Virus record (IMG/VR): IMGVR_UViG_3300023213_000358
Span: 1-38,038 of that record
Length of the DNA: 38,038 nucleotides
Origin: a virus
Direction: 5' to 3' (one strand)
Shown here: positions 4,838 to 12,392 of the stretch, one piece after another
Layout: every line of letters starts with the position of its first letter
Numbering within the stretch: position 1 is the stretch's first letter
Made by a program: the position numbers and the translations under genes
The notes under the pieces: generated by a model
Told to the model about the DNA's origin: nothing
Database searches by the model: none
The model's input: the letters and a program-made list of their open reading frames with translations, nothing else

Positions 4838-5089
4838 CTAGGAGCGGACCACGCGCAGCTTCGGCTTGCCCGCGATCTTCGGTTTTGCGCGGCGCTTGCG
4901 GGTGTTTTTTGCGATGCGGTCCAGCTTCGCCGGCACATCAACAAAGTTCTGGCAATGGAGCAAGCCGTTCAGTATCTGCAGTTCGGCTCGAATGTCCATC
5001 AGGACCTCCACAGCGACGTGCTCCCAGCGCCACTGGGCATCTGGCGGCGTCTGCCACTGGATGTTGACTCGGTTGGCTCGTCTAGCCAC
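4838..5089 (-). CDS. Hypothetical basic protein (start uncertain; the track gives 5137)
   Basis: GTG at 5089 slightly overlaps the stop of the upstream gene. Lys/Arg-rich C-terminus. Confidence 0.45.
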   Translation of the reverse strand: MARRANRVNIQWQTPPDAQWRWEHVAVEVLMDIRAELQILNGLLHCQNFVDVPAKLDRIAKNTRKRRAKPKIAGKPKLRVVRS

Positions 5090-5297
5090 GAGGCTCTCCG
5101 GAGGTAACCGGAAAGGCGCGATCCAGAGCCGCCTCAAGCGAGTCCTCCAGATCCATCGGACCGTCCTCCTCGTAGAGATCCCACTCGGTCATTTCAGGGA
5201 TGGCCTCGGGGTCCCCGTCCCGCTCATCCTGACAGTGGCACCACGACTGCATGCCGCACTGGGCATGATCGCCGCGAGTACAGGCTTCGCACATCAT
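5082..5297 (-). CDS. Small protein with a Cys/His-rich N-terminus and a strongly acidic C-terminus
   Basis: MMCEACTRGDHAQCGMQSWCHC followed by QDERDGDPEAIPEMTEWDLYEEDGPMDLEDSLE. ATGA overlap with the radical-SAM gene stop. Confidence 0.65.
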   Translation of the reverse strand: MMCEACTRGDHAQCGMQSWCHCQDERDGDPEAIPEMTEWDLYEEDGPMDLEDSLEAALDRAFPVTSGEPRG

Positions 5298-6175
5298 CCG
5301 AATAACCCCGTCTGTGCGTCGTACCGCTCGCGCCGTGACGATTTGATGCAGCCGGCGTACGCGCTGAAGGGCATGTAACGCCAGAGGCGTCGGTTCGCCC
5401 AGCGCGCAACATCTTTGAGCTTGCGCTCAGTCCAATCGAACTTGACCAGCGGCTCCTTCTCCAGCGCGTTAAGTTTGATCTTGTACTGCACGTGAGGCTC
5501 ACCACCCCAGGCGATCGCCTCTCGGATGCGCACCATACACTGATCGAAAGATTCGTTGCCGATCAGTACGTAGGGGCGCACCCGCTTCGGCTTCATCCCG
5601 CGAGAGGTGAGAATGAGCATCATCGCGCGCACTTGCCGCCACTCGTGCGACTCGTCGTAGCCGAAACGCCAGGGCCCGCGATTGATCTTCGACCAGCGCT
5701 CGAAGGTCGCGTCGTCAAAGTTCGAGGGCTCAAACCCCGAATTGGCGTCCCAGAGGGGAACGCCGGAGGCGACGTAGCGCTCAATGATGTGCTCCTGGTA
5801 GCGCACGTCGAGCCCGGCCAGATTGTTGTCGCACAGGATCGGGCGCACCGGGAAGTTCGGGAAGTGCTTAAAATCCCCGTCGATCATCCACGCGTTGCAG
5901 AAGTCGCAACGCATGTTGCACCCGCGGCTTGCATAGGTGGCGTCCGCGTTGTGGAACCGAATGGCATCCGGGATCGGTGCACCAAGCTCCGCGACCCCCT
6001 CTAGGTAGTGCCTGCGCATGAACGTGGCAGGTCCCCCGGCGAGCACTCGATAGCCCCAAGCCTTGTACTGCTCGGCGCGATCGCGGGCGTCCGGGAGCCG
6101 CCAGGTGAAGGCTACGGACAGGTAAGCATTCTCGCCGTCTGTCCACTCGGCCAGTCCGTTCACCCAACCGCTCAT
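5294..6175 (-). CDS. Radical SAM superfamily enzyme (unassigned subfamily)
   Basis: Canonical CX3CX2C cluster motif in YASRGCNMRCDFCNAW (the SRGC...C.FC context is typical of radical SAM cores), followed by ILCDNNL. About 80 aa of N-terminal extension. No second Cys cluster (no SPASM). Confidence 0.7.
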   Translation of the reverse strand: MSGWVNGLAEWTDGENAYLSVAFTWRLPDARDRAEQYKAWGYRVLAGGPATFMRRHYLEGVAELGAPIPDAIRFHNADATYASRGCNMRCDFCNAWMIDGDFKHFPNFPVRPILCDNNLAGLDVRYQEHIIERYVASGVPLWDANSGFEPSNFDDATFERWSKINRGPWRFGYDESHEWRQVRAMMLILTSRGMKPKRVRPYVLIGNESFDQCMVRIREAIAWGGEPHVQYKIKLNALEKEPLVKFDWTERKLKDVARWANRRLWRYMPFSAYAGCIKSSRRERYDAQTGLFG

Positions 6176-6390
6176 GCAGCGTCACCTGTTATGGAAAGAG
6201 GTGATCTGGACGCGTTCCACGCCTCAACCGCCTCGTCCCAGTCATCCCGGTGAGGCCCTTGGCCCCCGCACTGGCAGGTGACGCGGTAGCGCAGTCCGCG
6301 CTGCGAATACTCCGCCACGCGCTGCCGAAGGGATCGGCCGCAGAATGGGCAGGGCGCGATCAGGCCCGTGCGATCAACCGCCAGCGCCAT
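6172..6390 (-). CDS. Lar-family restriction-alleviation-like zinc-ribbon protein
   Basis: PCPFCG...(x)...VTCQCGGQGP...EAVEAWNASR matches the Lar family pattern (CPFCG ... C..C.a.gp ... A...WN.R). Good SD (GAAGGAAGTCATG). Confidence 0.65.
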   Translation of the reverse strand: MALAVDRTGLIAPCPFCGRSLRQRVAEYSQRGLRYRVTCQCGGQGPHRDDWDEAVEAWNASRSPLSITGDAA

Positions 6391-6957: not shown

Positions 6958-7710
6958 TCATACGAGCAGTACCTTCTGATAGGGCATGCGCTCAATCCGT
7001 GAGGCGAAGTGCGCCGCCTCGCGCCAGTTGTTTGCGTTCCGTCCTTCCCGGCGAGCTGCGAAGCTCCAGGCCATCGAGTCAGCGGAACGGAGTAGTCGTC
7101 TCACCAGCCCCGAGTGCAAAGCCGTCGTCTTGAGGCCAAACCCGTGAAGGAGTAGGTCAGGGCGCACCGCATGGATGGCCAGCAATACGGCCTCGATCGC
7201 CTGAACATCACTGTTGCGTTTGCATACGGAGCCGACACCGACCCACAGGCCAGCCGTGAGCCGGGGTCCGTACATGTGGACATGCCGGACGTAGTCCTCG
7301 GGCGAGTAACCCTGTAGGACCGGCATGATGTACACGCCAGGATTGCAGGCGACCAACGCATCGTACCGCTCGATCGTCAACCGCTGGTGCTCTGCGATGG
7401 ATAGCCCCGTTTTGGCGATGATCCACGGCTCGCACATGTAGTCCTGCGCGACCGCTGCGAGCAACTCGCCATTGCCGACCCAACGCCGGATCTCTGCGGC
7501 GTACTCCTCGACGCCATGCCGGTAGTGACCGTACGTAGCCAGCTCCGTGAAAGCGCCGCTGTCCATGATCCAGCGACCGACCTTGAATGGCCCCTTGCGC
7601 CTGCGCAGCCGGTTCACGCTGATGAAGGCCGTCTCGAAGTGACGAGCATCTGACGGTTGATGCAAGCCCGGGAAGAACAGCAGATTGTTTGTCCGCTGCT
7701 CTACGGACAT
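6958..7710 (-). CDS. dpdA: DpdA-like DNA-guanine transglycosylase (TGT superfamily) candidate
   Basis: Internal ATG of track ORF 6958..8073. Recognisable pattern MDSGAF ... MPVLQGYSPEDY ... VGVGSVCKR ... LHGFGLKTTAL ... SADSMAWS, as in 7-deazaguanine DNA transglycosylases. Not verified by search. Confidence 0.6.
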   Translation of the reverse strand: MSVEQRTNNLLFFPGLHQPSDARHFETAFISVNRLRRRKGPFKVGRWIMDSGAFTELATYGHYRHGVEEYAAEIRRWVGNGELLAAVAQDYMCEPWIIAKTGLSIAEHQRLTIERYDALVACNPGVYIMPVLQGYSPEDYVRHVHMYGPRLTAGLWVGVGSVCKRNSDVQAIEAVLLAIHAVRPDLLLHGFGLKTTALHSGLVRRLLRSADSMAWSFAARREGRNANNWREAAHFASRIERMPYQKVLLV

Positions 7711-7931
7711 TGCTGGTACTCCGCCGCTGCGTGCTGATCTATCGCGCCTGTATGGGGCGATTTGAACCAGTAATCCGAGTGTTCGAGGCCGAGCTTCCGC
7801 AGCTCGCCCACGGCCACCTTTTTCGTCCCGGCATTGAAGTGGTTCTCGCAGAGGAAGATGCCGAGCCAGCACGACGCCTTTAGACAGGCATCGCAGACCG
7901 TTACCGGATATTCCAAGATGCGATTGCTCAT
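7701..7931 (-). CDS. Hypothetical Cys-containing protein (C..C...SCW.G.F.C...AGT...ELRKLGLEHSDYW)
   Basis: Internal ATG of track ORF 7701..8102. ATGA overlap with the upstream gene. Confidence 0.55.
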   Translation of the reverse strand: MSNRILEYPVTVCDACLKASCWLGIFLCENHFNAGTKKVAVGELRKLGLEHSDYWFKSPHTGAIDQHAAAEYQQCP

Positions 7932-8143
7932 GGCTTCGGTTCGTGTGAGGCCGACCGGATGGCGTACAACGCATTGCGGAAGATCTTGCGCGCGTGCCAT
8001 TTTGGGTTGCTGATGATCGTGCACGGCCCGGGGTAATTGGCGACGAAGTACTCCTCGAAGTAGTGCATCGCATCCTCGAAAGTGAAGACCTCTCCGGGAC
8101 ACTCGGGCGATGCCATCTGATCTGCAGTCATATTGTCAGACAT
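7928..8143 (-). CDS. Hypothetical protein
   Basis: Internal ATG of track ORF 7928..8401. The upstream part of that ORF is Arg/Ser/Pro junk. Confidence 0.55.
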   Translation of the reverse strand: MSDNMTADQMASPECPGEVFTFEDAMHYFEEYFVANYPGPCTIISNPKWHARKIFRNALYAIRSASHEPKP

Positions 8144-8648: not shown

Positions 8649-8890
8649 GATGTTTTCCCCAGAAAATACGGCTGTATCCACCATTGCCAAACTCCCTTGA
8701 ACCAGGAGAACGTGTAGAGACAGGACATCATCATGATGCCGAATTGGTGATGACCCGCAAGCGTCCAGAACCAAAAGGGTTGCGCTGCTGATCCGAACAG
8801 ACACGCACTCCGACGCCAACTCTCGCGTTTGCTCTGCGTGAGGAATACGGCAGTTGAGCCGAATGCGACGATGCCGATCTGGTCGATCAC
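8645..8890 (-). CDS. 81-aa polytopic membrane protein (about 3 TM, Trp-rich)
   Basis: GTG at 8890 forms a GTGA overlap with the methyltransferase stop. VIDQIGIVAFGSTAVFLTQSKRESWRRSACLFGSAAQPFWFWTLAGHHQFGIMMMSCLYTFSWFKGVWQWW. Locally lower GC. Confidence 0.55.
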   Translation of the reverse strand: MIDQIGIVAFGSTAVFLTQSKRESWRRSACLFGSAAQPFWFWTLAGHHQFGIMMMSCLYTFSWFKGVWQWWIQPYFLGKTS

Positions 8891-9615
8891 GCAAGTTGCT
8901 CCACTCGTGGCTTGTAGACCCGCGCGATGTGACGTGCGAGAGGAAGGGGGATTTTGGCTACTGTGGCCTGCCAAGCGAGACGTTCCAATCTCTTGCTGTT
9001 CGCCGACCTTCCATTGCCGCCGTTTTTGAAAAACCAAGAGCGCCCACTGCCTTCGCCTTTGCGTCCCCTGGTCGCGAGAATTGTATTGAAGGCCTGCCCC
9101 GCACGATGCTTGGGGTCTTCTGGATGTTTCCAGTCCAAACCACCCACCTTCACGCCGCCCTTGGTCATCGGCATGAGCGCCGGCACATCGCCCCACAGGT
9201 AGTAACTGCCGTAGTGCCAGCGTGCGCGCCCGACCCACTTCTGCGCCCCGCGGACATTCTCCACGACCATCGGGATGTGGCGACCCGCTGCCGCGCAGGC
9301 CTCACGCTGAATGCGAAATTGCGCCTGGAACAACTCAATCCCGAGCACCGGAGGCGGCGCGGCTTTGGCGGCCTGCCAGGGCATCGCGCGCCAACTAAAT
9401 TCCTGGCAGGGACTTGAGCCCACGATCAGGTCAGCGTCCTTGAACTGCCGGCCGTGGAGCGTGCGCACGTCCTGCAAGACGAGTTGCCCGGGGTAGCGGT
9501 GCTCACCGTAGACGTGCTCCTCAAGGTCAAAGCCGATCACACGCCATCCTTCGGCCAGAAGCCCTTCCGTCCAGCCGCCGAGTCCGCAATACAGGTCCAC
9601 CGCCAGCGGCCTCAC
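8887..9615 (-). CDS. DNA (cytosine-5)-methyltransferase, compact
   Basis: Motif I DLYCGLGGW, motif IV GSSPCQEFS, motif VI VVENVRG, and a C-terminal IPLPLARHIA resembling motif X. GTG at 9615 overlaps the upstream stop (GTGA). Confidence 0.85.
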   Translation of the reverse strand: MRPLAVDLYCGLGGWTEGLLAEGWRVIGFDLEEHVYGEHRYPGQLVLQDVRTLHGRQFKDADLIVGSSPCQEFSWRAMPWQAAKAAPPPVLGIELFQAQFRIQREACAAAGRHIPMVVENVRGAQKWVGRARWHYGSYYLWGDVPALMPMTKGGVKVGGLDWKHPEDPKHRAGQAFNTILATRGRKGEGSGRSWFFKNGGNGRSANSKRLERLAWQATVAKIPLPLARHIARVYKPRVEQLA

Positions 9616-9830
9616 GCAGACTGCTCCGCGGCACAGGCCCGAATGTCCTCCATCGCGCGCGCGTCCGTCGCGAAGAAGTGCGGGACGCGCCCTGTGCTGG
9701 CCCGGTAGATCATGGCGCCCGCGCGCTGTGGCCCGTATTTGGCTTCCAGCTCCTGGCCAGCCTCGCCTGCGAGCGTGATCGCCCACCCAGCGCGGCAGTG
9801 CGTCGTCTCGCACTGGTGCCACGTCGCCAT
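9612..9830 (-). CDS. Hypothetical protein (WHQCETTHCRAGWAI motif); possibly the C-terminal half of a split pentapeptide-repeat gene
   Basis: ATG at 9830 lies 1 nt after the upstream stop. Its frame is open for 12 further codons upstream, overlapping the end of 9832..10155. Confidence 0.55.
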   Translation of the reverse strand: MATWHQCETTHCRAGWAITLAGEAGQELEAKYGPQRAGAMIYRASTGRVPHFFATDARAMEDIRACAAEQSA

Positions 9831-9831
9831 G

Positions 9832-10155
9832 TCAAGCCCTGCCGGCGCCAGACGCAATGACGGCAAGTATCTGGGCGTCGAGGTCCGGGATCACCGGCAC
9901 GTCGGGATTGCGTGCACGGAAGCGCTCGGCTCGACGCTTGGCACGCTCTTTGCGGTCGGCTCGTTCTGGCCGATGTGCCTCTGAACCATTCGTTTCACCG
10001 AGGTTCCTGGCGTCCGTGAGGTCGGCGCCCGTGAGGTCGGCGTCCGTGAGGTCGGCGCGCGCCTTGACGGCCGCGATCACCGCAGTACGCAGGCTCGCGA
10101 ACTCGCCCCCGAAGATGACGGCGCCGGTGAAGCGGTTTTTAATCTCGACGTTCAT
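9832..10155 (-). CDS. Pentapeptide-repeat protein
   Basis: ADLTDADLTGADLTDARNL (A(D/N)LXX repeats) encoded by a 3 x 15-bp tandem DNA repeat. ATG at 10155 has a strong SD (GAGGAGattgagcATG). Confidence 0.75.
   Translation of the reverse strand: MNVEIKNRFTGAVIFGGEFASLRTAVIAAVKARADLTDADLTGADLTDARNLGETNGSEAHRPERADRKERAKRRAERFRARNPDVPVIPDLDAQILAVIASGAGRA
10024..10068. repeat. 3 x 15-bp tandem repeat (ccgtgaggtcggcgY) encoding the pentapeptide repeats
   Basis: Read directly from the sequence. Confidence 0.9.
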
Positions 10156-10192
10156 GCTCAATCTCCTCAAACGAGTAACTGTGGATCAGTGG

Positions 10193-10380: not shown

Positions 10381-10959
10381 TCAGGTACTCGCCTGCCACC
10401 ACCACAGATTCAGCGCCGACACAAACCAACTCCAGTCGCGGGTGTCCTCGTACGGATAGAGTCGATACTCGCTATCCGCGCGCAACTGCACCCCGTAGCG
10501 CTTCAGGGGTCGCCCGCCATAGGTGCGGCGGAACAAGTGCTCGTAGCCCGCCGTCTGTAGGCCCGCAGTGCGCGGCATGACAGTGGGAGTCTTCCAGTCA
10601 AACACCGCAGTGTAGCGTCGCATCACGCCCAACAAGTCTAGAGTGCCCGCGAACTTCAGCTGCGGGTCCACCATGCGATGCTCGACCCGCAGGACGGTCA
10701 CTTCGGCCTCTTTCACGAATTTCTGCGCAGCCGTGACGTAGGGCACGAGTTGAGGATCGAGCGTCGCCCAGTCCAGTTGCACCAGGAGCGCAAGCGCCAC
10801 GGCGTGATGCACCTGCTGCCCGAACACCCGCGCGGCCTCTAAGGTTTCTGGGGGAATCCCGTCCCAGCACTGCAGTGGCTCCAGCACCTGCGTCACGGAG
10901 GGAATCTCCTGGTCATCCAGGGAGTACCGGTGCTCTTTCTCGTCGAAGCGAAAGTCCAT
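10381..10959 (-). CDS. PD-(D/E)XK family exonuclease (RecB/Cas4-like fold, no Cys cluster)
   Basis: N-terminal EKEHRYSLDDQEIPSVTQVL and the catalytic-like block FAGTLDLLG...AVFDWKT. Partner position next to RecT. The start could also be 11001. Confidence 0.7.
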   Translation of the reverse strand: MDFRFDEKEHRYSLDDQEIPSVTQVLEPLQCWDGIPPETLEAARVFGQQVHHAVALALLVQLDWATLDPQLVPYVTAAQKFVKEAEVTVLRVEHRMVDPQLKFAGTLDLLGVMRRYTAVFDWKTPTVMPRTAGLQTAGYEHLFRRTYGGRPLKRYGVQLRADSEYRLYPYEDTRDWSWFVSALNLWWWQAST

Positions 10960-11031
10960 CACAGGCCTAGTTCCTCTTGCGCCATCTTGACGACCATACA
11001 TCGGCCAGCGCCACGTTCTGTTCCACTGTGC

Positions 11032-11868
11032 TCATGGGGCGTTGTCCTGTACGAGTTGAATCGCCTCCGCGACCTGATCCGTGCGCAGATCCTCCAGCGC
11101 GCCGACCTCGAATTTCACCATGACCAGCTTGTCGGGCACCCCGGTTTTGGCGAGCTGTTCGCGCAACAACTCCAACTGATCCTCGGTGGCTGGTCCCGGC
11201 TCAGCTTTGAACGCCTGCGGCGACTCTGGGACCTCTTTACGCGTCGTACTGGGCAAGAGGTCCACACCAGGCGAGAGTGCAATGACTTCCCCCTCGTCCG
11301 CATCGAAGATGCCGCCGAAGCCAAAAGCCGCCCGTGCACTCTGGATGTAGGCGCGGTGTTGCAACATCCGCGTCGGCATCTGATCCCACGGGTCGGTCTT
11401 GCGGTAATTCTCTTTGTAGTACTGCCGGCGACTGATCGGAAACTTCCGGTCACTGCGATGGATGATGCACTCGTAATAGAAGCCGAGCACGACGCCATCA
11501 GGTCCAATCGTCTCGTCAAACCCCGACCGCATCTCTTCGCCGACGTAGGTGCTCTGGCGCTCGACGAGACGCACCCACCCGTCAATGCCGACAATCGGGC
11601 TGATGCCCCCCGCCTTGTTGCGAAACGCGTAGATTTCCCTCGTGAAGGGGTTGAGGTGGTACTCGTTACTGACGATCATCAGCGCCGCGATCTCCGCATC
11701 CGTGACGGCGGGCTCCCCGCGCTTCACCGCGAAGGCGGTATTGCGCAGGATATCCAGCACTAGCTTCGGATCGACCGAGTAGCGCTGCGCGAACAACTCG
11801 ATCAAGCGCGGCTTTGCGGGAGCGACGTCTTGCGGCTTTTTGCCGACCACGGGCTTGGGCTGGTTCAC
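11032..11868 (-). CDS. recT: RecT-family single-strand annealing recombinase
   Basis: LMIVSNEYHLNPFTREIYAF...GISPIVGIDGW...DPWDQMPTRMLQHRAYIQSARAAFGF is the typical RecT core pattern. Confidence 0.85.
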   Translation of the reverse strand: MNQPKPVVGKKPQDVAPAKPRLIELFAQRYSVDPKLVLDILRNTAFAVKRGEPAVTDAEIAALMIVSNEYHLNPFTREIYAFRNKAGGISPIVGIDGWVRLVERQSTYVGEEMRSGFDETIGPDGVVLGFYYECIIHRSDRKFPISRRQYYKENYRKTDPWDQMPTRMLQHRAYIQSARAAFGFGGIFDADEGEVIALSPGVDLLPSTTRKEVPESPQAFKAEPGPATEDQLELLREQLAKTGVPDKLVMVKFEVGALEDLRTDQVAEAIQLVQDNAP

Positions 11869-12173: not shown

Positions 12174-12392
12174 ATGAACTCCATTAAGCAGCATCTGGAT
12201 ACTCACCGGCGCTCCCAGCACGACTTCGCGCAAGCCGTGAACATCACCGACTCGCACCTCTCGCGCATCCTCTCCGGGCACCGGGCACCCTCGCTCCGGG
12301 TGCTCAAACGGATGGCAAAGGAATTGCGCGTCTCGATCGGCAAGCTCGCGGCCGAGGTGCAAGAGTACAAACGCGAAGGCCCGCCTCCGTGA
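12174..12392 (+). CDS. XRE-family helix-turn-helix regulator (Cro/CI-like)
   Basis: SQHDFAQAVNITDSHLSRILSGHRAPSLRVLKRMAKEL is a classic HTH_3-type motif. Sits at the divergent switch region. No SD, and the ATG is 8 nt after the putative -10. Confidence 0.8.
   Translation: MNSIKQHLDTHRRSQHDFAQAVNITDSHLSRILSGHRAPSLRVLKRMAKELRVSIGKLAAEVQEYKREGPPP

Follow-up and report, generated by a model that had tools for sequence, protein, structure and literature searches.

Radical S-adenosylmethionine (SAM) enzymes that act on DNA are almost unknown. Spore photoproduct lyase (SPL) was the only DNA-associated member of the superfamily until gp53 of phage M6 emerged as the first radical-SAM enzyme involved in installing a DNA modification (PMC8989533). 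Another member, QueE, catalyzes the radical-SAM reaction in the deazaguanine pathway, which supplies DpdA, the DNA guanine transglycosylase. In the virus record IMGVR_UViG_3300023213_000358, of which the whole 38,038-nt stretch was analyzed (the window), a radical-SAM gene lies on the minus strand, with a DpdA gene ~0.8 kb upstream of it on the same strand. From this arrangement an earlier note, made from the letters of the sequence, proposed a tailoring or biosynthetic step for a hypermodified base. Our analysis leads elsewhere. The product is a highly divergent radical-SAM enzyme related to PHROG 9298, a member of a large phage family; the adjacency of DpdA in the window is incidental, and the enzyme stands outside the DpdA/7-deazaguanine pathway. 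Our preferred account, to which we would give a rough probability of 45%, is that of an autonomous, clamp-tethered radical-SAM enzyme that would act on DNA for counter-defense.

The closest described sequences are those of PHROG 9298, whose examples (gp19 of Clostridium phage phiCT453B, UF08_54 of Marinitoga camini virus 1 [MCV1], and a Bacteroides LoVEphage protein) are all uncharacterized. The window protein matches this profile at E = 2.8e-10, with residues 72-263 aligned to profile positions 93-280 of 305 and the N-terminal part of the profile unmatched. The two share a homologous core, marked by S-x-x-F-x-W, GGP, RGC...C.FC.VP, DNN, and D-x-N/Q-x-G motifs; PHROG 9298 also gives tblastn matches to a second branch of the family (subfamily 2, queried with the protein P0199), and all are phage early-region genes. 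At ~22% identity the differences are equally clear: the window subfamily (subfamily 1) is without ~45 N-terminal Rossmann-like residues but has a Q-x-G-L-F tail.

The gene itself (ATG start, 293 codons and a stop, from the list of open reading frames [ORFs] and the sequence) overlaps its neighbors by ATGA at both ends, its start with the Lar-like ORF upstream and its stop with the start of a 71-aa ORF downstream, an arrangement that points to translational coupling on either side. The translation contains YASRGCNMRCDFCNAW, with C86, C90, and C93 encoded at nt 5897-5920 (minus strand). About 85 residues precede this CX3CX2C cluster, ILCDNNL follows it at residues 113-119, and the only other cysteines are C115, C213, and C277. 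The cluster, an extension of some 80 residues before it, and the lack of a SPASM-type second cluster had all been picked out in the earlier note, and all three readings hold. In an alignment of 38 homologs of 57-72% identity (A1), C86, C90, and C93 are invariant, as are D143-A-N-S-G-F-E-P150, G167-P-W-R-F171, Y202, G206, E208, R258, W259, and N261. In a broader alignment of 56 sequences, comprising the window protein and 55 full-length representatives of 50%-identity clusters, the three cysteines are still 96-98% conserved, far more than chance would give. Conservation there extends in the N-terminal part and around the cluster to S20, F23, W25, G47, G48, P49, and G85, and in the core to P112, D116, N118, D143, G147, R170, D174, Y202, L204, R216, G224, P227, and W248, with no further conserved cysteine. 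C115 and C213 were considered as catalytic cysteines and rejected, being conserved in the close subfamily only and not across the broad family.

Judged from sequence alone, the radical-SAM assignment would be weak. Where the gathering cutoff of Pfam PF04055 is 29.5, the window protein reaches 16.1 bits, with the match limited to the cluster motif, and 37 of 38 members are similarly sub-threshold; the family has diverged too far for this model. A search of the window protein against NCBIfam matched no family, and a PDB sequence search, with the single protein and with a profile, gave nothing significant. The predicted fold, with the partial TIM-barrel core of the superfamily, supports the assignment strongly. 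An AlphaFold2 (AF2) model built with A1 (mean predicted local distance difference test [pLDDT] 90.7, predicted template-modeling score [pTM] 0.84) matched AprD4 best among PDB structures (6fd2, E = 7.5e-7, template-modeling score TMq 0.62), then MgmA (9ccb, E = 1.7e-5, TMq 0.56) and MiaB (7mjz, E = 2.7e-4), each at a Foldseek probability of 1.00, with LipA and SuiB ranking after MiaB. The best match in BFVD was a giant-virus MtaB-like protein (E = 7.1e-5), and a putative QueE appeared there at E = 0.11 and TMq 0.36. QueE is not among the PDB structure matches with E<=0.001, neither Pfam nor NCBIfam gives a QueE match, and the cluster lies at residue 86 and not near the N-terminus. The earlier note was thus right in setting this protein apart from QueE, and the structure comparison by which it proposed to check the point leads to AprD4, MgmA, and enzymes of the MiaB type. 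Reductive cleavage of SAM at a [4Fe-4S] cluster is the predicted chemistry.

None of these structural relatives is close. The cluster motif is near the RGCPxxCxFCxVP of MgmA, but identity to AprD4 and MgmA is ~12%, both are 417-454 residues long with a full N-domain where the window protein has a 55-residue remnant, MgmA binds cobalamin, the substrates are an aminoglycoside and a protein, and neither enzyme has a clamp-type tail. MiaB and MtaB share the fold and are nucleic-acid-modifying radical-SAM enzymes; unlike them, the window protein has no N-terminal (UPF0004) three-Cys auxiliary cluster, with no conserved cysteine in residues 1-80, and no C-terminal TRAM domain, for which there is no match. 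It likewise differs from SPASM/twitch enzymes in having no C-terminal Cys-rich auxiliary-cluster domain: no SPASM or RRE domain was found, and the post-core C213 and C277 are not conserved family-wide. From class B (cobalamin-dependent) enzymes it differs in the absence of a complete PF02310 domain. Residues 1-55 conserve S20, F23, W25, and G47-G48-P49 and no cysteine. The distant members phiCT453B, MCV1, and vir215 have ~45 extra N-terminal residues that complete the Rossmann-like domain, and some long or distant members give sub-threshold PF02310 matches (18-20 bits against a cutoff of 32.1); the window protein gives none, and only ~55 residues precede the linker to the core. The N-domain of the window subfamily is probably a truncated remnant of a B12-binding-like Rossmann domain, and cobalamin binding is unlikely. 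Even so, the placement of the protein in the B12-binding clade, as the first reading had guessed, is borne out by the structural relatives, which carry an N-terminal domain of that type or are kin of enzymes that do. In outline, the protein is predicted to begin with a truncated B12-binding-like N-domain, continue through a CX3CX2C radical-SAM core, and finish in a basic C-terminal region whose tail is disordered.

If the enzyme did act with the neighboring DpdA on an inserted 7-deazaguanine, the two genes should travel together. Homolog loci came from viral contigs (80), species-representative genomes (47), and metagenome contigs (80), with 1 further locus, giving 180 non-redundant loci with ~2.0 Mb of flanking DNA, of which 89 have at least 3 kb on both sides. 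DpdA was sought by tblastn and phmmer with the window DpdA and with a hidden Markov model (HMM) from 81 DpdA sequences, and was found in 0 of the 180 loci by any of the three. In the other direction, 0 of 80 viral loci with DpdA homologs of 44-74% identity had a homolog of the radical-SAM gene within 10 kb. Seven CX3CX2C-containing ORFs near other DpdA genes were inspected and dismissed as chance, one being a terminase large subunit and the others having no Pfam match or radical-SAM features. In the locus of P0005, which is 67% identical to the window protein, the 7.5 kb upstream covered by the contig contain no DpdA, and a helicase, an N6/N4 methyltransferase, and an integrase lie nearby; the contig of P0003 (71% identical) ends ~1.8 kb upstream, so that locus is uninformative on DpdA. 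The pairing recurs only on a near-identical sister contig of 37,996 bp, on which no preQ0-pathway genes (QueC, QueD, FolE) were called in the 21 kb around the gene. The 80 closest viral homologs of the window DpdA are themselves solitary, in variable contexts and without conserved neighbors, and the window gene fits the "singleton" DpdA genes noted previously (PMC10516641). As a minor point on this gene, its longest ORF, 6958-8073 (minus strand), runs far upstream of the probable start, which is the M at 7632, or 7710 in the Joint Genome Institute (JGI) call of 250 aa.

Since there is no co-occurrence in either direction, the adjacency in the window is incidental. For the coupling proposed in the earlier note one can still cite the shared strand and operon, the lack of any minus-strand terminator-like site between the two genes, the repeat of the pairing on the sister contig, and the fact that an enzyme other than QueE would be a new step. 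Against these stand both surveys, the P0005 locus, the missing preQ0 genes, the solitary habit of this DpdA subfamily, and the finding of the enzyme family in thousands of phages in unrelated contexts, and we regard the coupling as exceedingly improbable. The note itself had held that its proposal would fall if homologs elsewhere did not occur with dpdA-like genes, and in the 180 loci surveyed they do not. What survives of it, on other evidence, is the idea of a new DNA-modifying enzyme; the tie to DpdA and 7-deazaguanine is unsupported. The outcome is a negative one for work on deazaguanines, yet a useful one: adjacency in one phage is no ground for adding an enzyme to the Dpd pathway.

The family is very large. 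The window protein has 2457 homologs in a collection of 5.8 billion proteins, and the top 120 (57-72% identity, about 300 aa) are all unnamed or "hypothetical." A profile search of 1.84 billion cluster representatives returned 1153 clusters (50% identity) at E<=1e-3, of which 476 reach E<=1e-10 and 115 reach E<=1e-30, with no names carried among the cluster members. Subfamily 2 has 4247 matches, and the sole name in any source is "Putative radical SAM superfamily protein." Among GenBank phages there are only distant "radical SAM domain protein" annotations, the plasmids of PLSDB give no match, and no PADLOC model matches the window protein or P0199. The loci from species-representative genomes place the hosts in Alphaproteobacteria, Burkholderiaceae, Dehalococcoidia and other Chloroflexota, Acidobacteriota, and Brevibacillus. 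Taken together, the members number in the thousands; they come from phages of Proteobacteria, Chloroflexota, Acidobacteriota, Bacillota, and Bacteroidota, lie among anti-restriction and anti-defense genes, and have no functional annotation.

No neighbor follows the gene through these phages. De novo clustering of ~3400 neighboring ORFs produced no family that exceeded 19% of loci; over the 180 loci the commonest were a ParB_N-N6/N4 DNA methyltransferase (34), integrase (26), DUF5131 (19), DUF1376 (14), C5 methyltransferases (9+6), and YqaJ (8). In subfamily 2, early-region neighbors include the Acb2/Tad1-hairpin, Tad6, Lockin, DUF4942, N6_N4 methyltransferase, HNH, pentapeptide-repeat, ERF, and RusA families. 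P0388 was seen, with identical sequence, in two different settings, which, with the lack of a conserved neighbor, is how a mobile accessory gene behaves. The family is thus a mobile accessory gene that is shuffled horizontally; its place is the early region (recombination, anti-restriction, anti-defense) of temperate phages, and it has no dedicated partner. Two observations on these neighbors may be useful in their own right. DUF5131, the phage Gp37/Gp68 family (PF07505, E = 3e-83 at L182 2926-3867), is the third commonest neighbor, at a median distance of ~2.4 kb. Pfam families Acb2/Tad1-hairpin, Tad6, and Lockin occur within a few kb of subfamily-2 genes (L298 5070-5285; L300 8757-9443 and 2411-2707), in regions that look like anti-defense islands and are a possible source of further candidates.

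The same neighborhoods bear on the notion that the gene is a prophage-encoded anti-phage defense gene, viperin-like, or the maturase of a small neighboring peptide in the manner of RiPPs (peptides made on the ribosome and modified after translation). Prophage accessory regions do carry defense genes, and in the window the gene is translationally coupled to the 71-aa Cys-rich ORF. The downstream ORF is not conserved, however: its largest cluster covers 4 of 152 cases and the 71-aa ORF itself occurs in 1 of 80 loci, so there is no dedicated partner or precursor peptide, and a conserved downstream peptide was rejected on that count. The absence of PADLOC matches and of SPASM or RRE domains, and the position of the gene inside an early lytic operon with recombination genes and not in a separately expressed moron, also count against this notion, which we consider very improbable.

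What the family does have in common is its C-terminus. The consensus for binding the beta sliding clamp is QL[S/D]LF, usually C-terminal, as in QLGLF of E. coli Pol II (PMC3716654). The window protein ends in ...YDAQTGLFG, and its tail, residues 281-293, is the sole low-confidence part of the model (pLDDT 47-54) and thus predicted to be disordered, so that a C-terminal pentapeptide of the consensus type lies in a flexible region as QTGLF-G-COOH, deviating at position 2. The pattern Q..[LMI]F occurs in the last 10 residues of 97 of 121 close homologs and 58 of 174 locus members, against 15 of 2507 (0.6%) neighboring control ORFs. A broader pattern, Q..[LMIV][FLWYM] in the last 14 residues, is found in 158 of 288 full-length sequences, and in 138 of the 158 it stands exactly one residue from the C-terminus. 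In subfamily 2, whose tails are otherwise unrelated, the endings include QMSLF, QMDLF, QGDLF, QTDMF, QLSMF, and TADLF, with [LMI]F in the last 10 residues of 54 of 117 members versus 3.6% of controls. When 258 tails are anchored on LF, Q stands at -3 in 71%, G, D, or S at -1, and position -2 is variable. The Q-x-[G/D/S]-[L/M]-F tail thus resembles the clamp-binding consensus and may bind the clamp. With Pol II and UmuC (QLNLF) it shares the C-terminal pentapeptide in a disordered tail with Q at position 1, G, S, or D at 3, L or M at 4, and F at 5; it differs in position 2, which is Q or T in the family and L in the known binders, and in that its clamp binding is a prediction. We found no radical-SAM enzyme with a clamp-binding motif described in the literature searched. 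A separate tail type is seen in L191-L203 (Chloroflexota, Acidobacteriota, Brevibacillus), where a conserved (E/Q)-P-x-P-F-(A/S) stands a few residues from the C-terminus in place of Q-x-G-L-F; this may be another docking peptide, suited to a different partner in the host. No PIP-box was seen at the C-terminus of the archaeal-virus member vir215, whose record contains X residues and is uninformative on this point.

A second line of evidence comes from domain fusions. In P0189 the radical-SAM enzyme (residues 44-317) is fused with a full Type II DNA methyltransferase domain (PADLOC PDLC03244, E = 1.8e-29, residues 368-628), and the fusion is present on two contigs; P0192 is a ParB_N fusion and P0265 an HNH fusion of the enzyme. 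Inteins (Hint with a LAGLIDADG homing endonuclease) are inserted in the members P0139, P0197, and P0218, in P0197 directly after the CX3CX2C motif, and such insertions in three members speak for a conserved, selected active site; they also count among the clues that suggest DNA. The proteins are basic, with a median isoelectric point (pI) of ~8.7 and, in the window subfamily, a pI of ~10 over the C-terminal 60 residues. From the tail motif, the fusions, and the basic charge we infer tethering to the clamp and action on DNA.

The same evidence must be weighed against the chance that the substrate is not DNA at all and that the family is a stand-alone counter-defense or host-takeover enzyme acting on host tRNA or rRNA, on a host or defense protein, or on a small molecule such as an immune signal, with the C-terminal motif docking to another host protein or folding back on the enzyme. 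The closest folds do act on tRNA (MiaB), a protein (MgmA), and small molecules (AprD4), the gene adjoins genes of the Acb2/Tad1 and Tad6 types, which target signaling molecules, the tail motif differs between lineages, and an overall basic charge suits RNA as much as DNA. But the fusion partners are DNA-directed, the tail fits the clamp consensus in two divergent subfamilies, and there is neither a TRAM or other RNA-binding domain nor the auxiliary-cluster cysteines needed for MiaB-type chemistry. A non-DNA substrate therefore seems to us unlikely, if well worth keeping in mind.

The preferred account of a clamp-tethered enzyme acting on DNA would run as follows. Infection or induction would lead to expression of the gene as part of the leftward early operon; the Q-x-[G/D/S]-[L/M]-F motif would dock the enzyme on the host beta sliding clamp; and the 5'-deoxyadenosyl radical from the [4Fe-4S]/SAM site would chemically alter DNA behind the replication fork, with post-replicative DNA modification for counter-defense as the outcome. 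It is the neighbors of the gene, in the window the Lar-like, DpdA, and C5-methyltransferase genes as counter-defense context, that make post-replicative modification for counter-defense the most likely role. If the substrate is DNA, the enzyme would share it with SPL and M6 gp53, the latter a phage enzyme of post-replicative DNA hypermodification (PMC8989533). M6 gp53 differs in having an SPL-like fold and in belonging to a conserved biosynthetic cluster that also encodes a kinase, a transferase, and a pyridoxal phosphate (PLP) enzyme, where the window enzyme is AprD4/MgmA-like and without partners. A more specific version, in which the clamp-recruited family installs a partner-free, radical-derived (C-H functionalizing) modification of a hitherto unknown kind on freshly replicated DNA and so protects it from host nucleases, is speculative, and we would sooner bet against it than for it.

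Clamp recruitment might instead serve DNA repair, in the form of radical-based direct reversal or processing of a lesion, an SPL-like role in aid of phage DNA replication. Repair and translesion enzymes typically carry clamp-binding motifs (PMC3716654), SPL was the sole known DNA-associated radical-SAM enzyme before M6 gp53 (PMC8989533), and recombination genes are frequent neighbors: RecT and an exonuclease in the window; YqaJ, ERF, and RusA elsewhere. SPL is not among the 50 best PDB matches listed, however, no family-wide cysteine could act as hydrogen-atom donor (C115 and C213 being conserved in the close subfamily only), and the association with methyltransferase, Lar, and anti-defense genes suits modification better. 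We consider a repair role improbable.

Several points weigh against the clamp-tethered, DNA-acting enzyme that we favor. The clamp binding hangs on a five-residue motif whose position 2 is Q or T where the consensus has L; the motif is missing from many members, the Chloroflexota and Acidobacteriota members carry the different (E/Q)-P-x-P-F tail, and distant PHROG 9298-type members with the full N-domain lack it. Fusions are uncommon, amounting to a handful in the 150 listed representatives, and some may be artefacts of gene calling, as in the P0138 fragment. Among the nearest structural relatives none works on DNA (their substrates are an aminoglycoside, a protein, and tRNA), and both known DNA-acting radical-SAM enzymes, SPL and M6 gp53, are of a different, SPL-type fold. 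Prophages commonly have early regions rich in methyltransferases in any case, which makes the neighborhood weak evidence, and literature searches found no paper on the family or on a phage radical-SAM enzyme of this type. Should the clamp-tethered, DNA-acting enzyme nevertheless prove true, it would add a third class, distinct in structure, to the DNA-acting radical-SAM enzymes after SPL and M6 gp53, and the first that is clamp-tethered; with clamp tethering and a DNA substrate, it would bring a DNA modification chemistry that is new and encoded by a single gene, together with a new coupling of base modification to replication. If the substrate is not DNA, the family is still a large, unexplored counter-defense candidate.

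Table 1. Coordinates of the features discussed, on the 38,038-nt window
Feature	Position	Strand	Basis
Radical-SAM gene, member of a large uncharacterized phage family	5294..6175	-	ORF, 2457 homologs, AF2, Foldseek, PHROG 9298
N-terminal mini-domain, residues 1-55, predicted beta-beta-beta-alpha-beta	6011..6175	-	model secondary structure, invariant columns
CX3CX2C [4Fe-4S]/SAM cluster motif, C86 N M R C90 D F C93	5897..5920	-	sequence and alignments
Radical-SAM core, about residues 78-250	5426..5944	-	alignments, AF2 model, Foldseek
C-terminal short linear motif Q288-T-G-L-F-G293, resembles beta-sliding-clamp-binding motif	5297..5314	-	pLDDT, motif statistics, published consensus
71-aa Cys/His-rich acidic ORF, translationally coupled downstream	5082..5297	-	no family match; tblastn finds it in 1/80 viral loci
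Lar-like restriction-alleviation ORF, 72 aa, 4-nt overlap with radical-SAM start	6172..6390	-	PF14354 E=9e-6, TIGR03655 E=1.9e-8, phrog_599 E=1.7e-9
Solitary DpdA (DNA guanine transglycosylase) gene, not a conserved partner	6958..7632	-	PF23859 E=2.2e-44, phrog_1279 E=1.7e-64
C5-cytosine DNA methyltransferase-like gene, same leftward early operon	8887..9822	-	PF00145 E=2.8e-6, phrog_363 E=1.6e-12

The window is a lambdoid-type temperate phage. The leftward early operon with the radical-SAM gene also holds the RecT (11032-11868) and exonuclease (10381-11001) genes; beyond a regulatory region with a helix-turn-helix (HTH)-type regulator gene (12174-12392) come a resolvase and a replication initiator, with lysis and structural genes elsewhere. 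The Pfam and NCBIfam scores of the Lar-like ORF are slightly under the curated cutoffs, and on the sister contig (L289) the corresponding stretch of 650 bp (L289 9352-10001) has no JGI-called gene. The 71-aa ORF has a Cys/His-rich N-terminal segment (CEACTRGDHAQCGMQSWCHC) and an acidic C-terminal half, and its product may be a small zinc-binding protein. Farther upstream, the ORFs 9612-9866 and 9832-10170 (both minus strand) overlap and match different parts of phrog_31265 (264 positions), the 112-aa ORF, with pentapeptide-like ADLTD repeats, covering positions 1-50 and the 84-aa ORF positions 166-248; their appearance is that of a single gene broken by a frameshift, whether genuine or introduced in assembly. 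A pentapeptide-repeat protein is also encoded just upstream of a subfamily-2 radical-SAM gene (L296 4896-5501).

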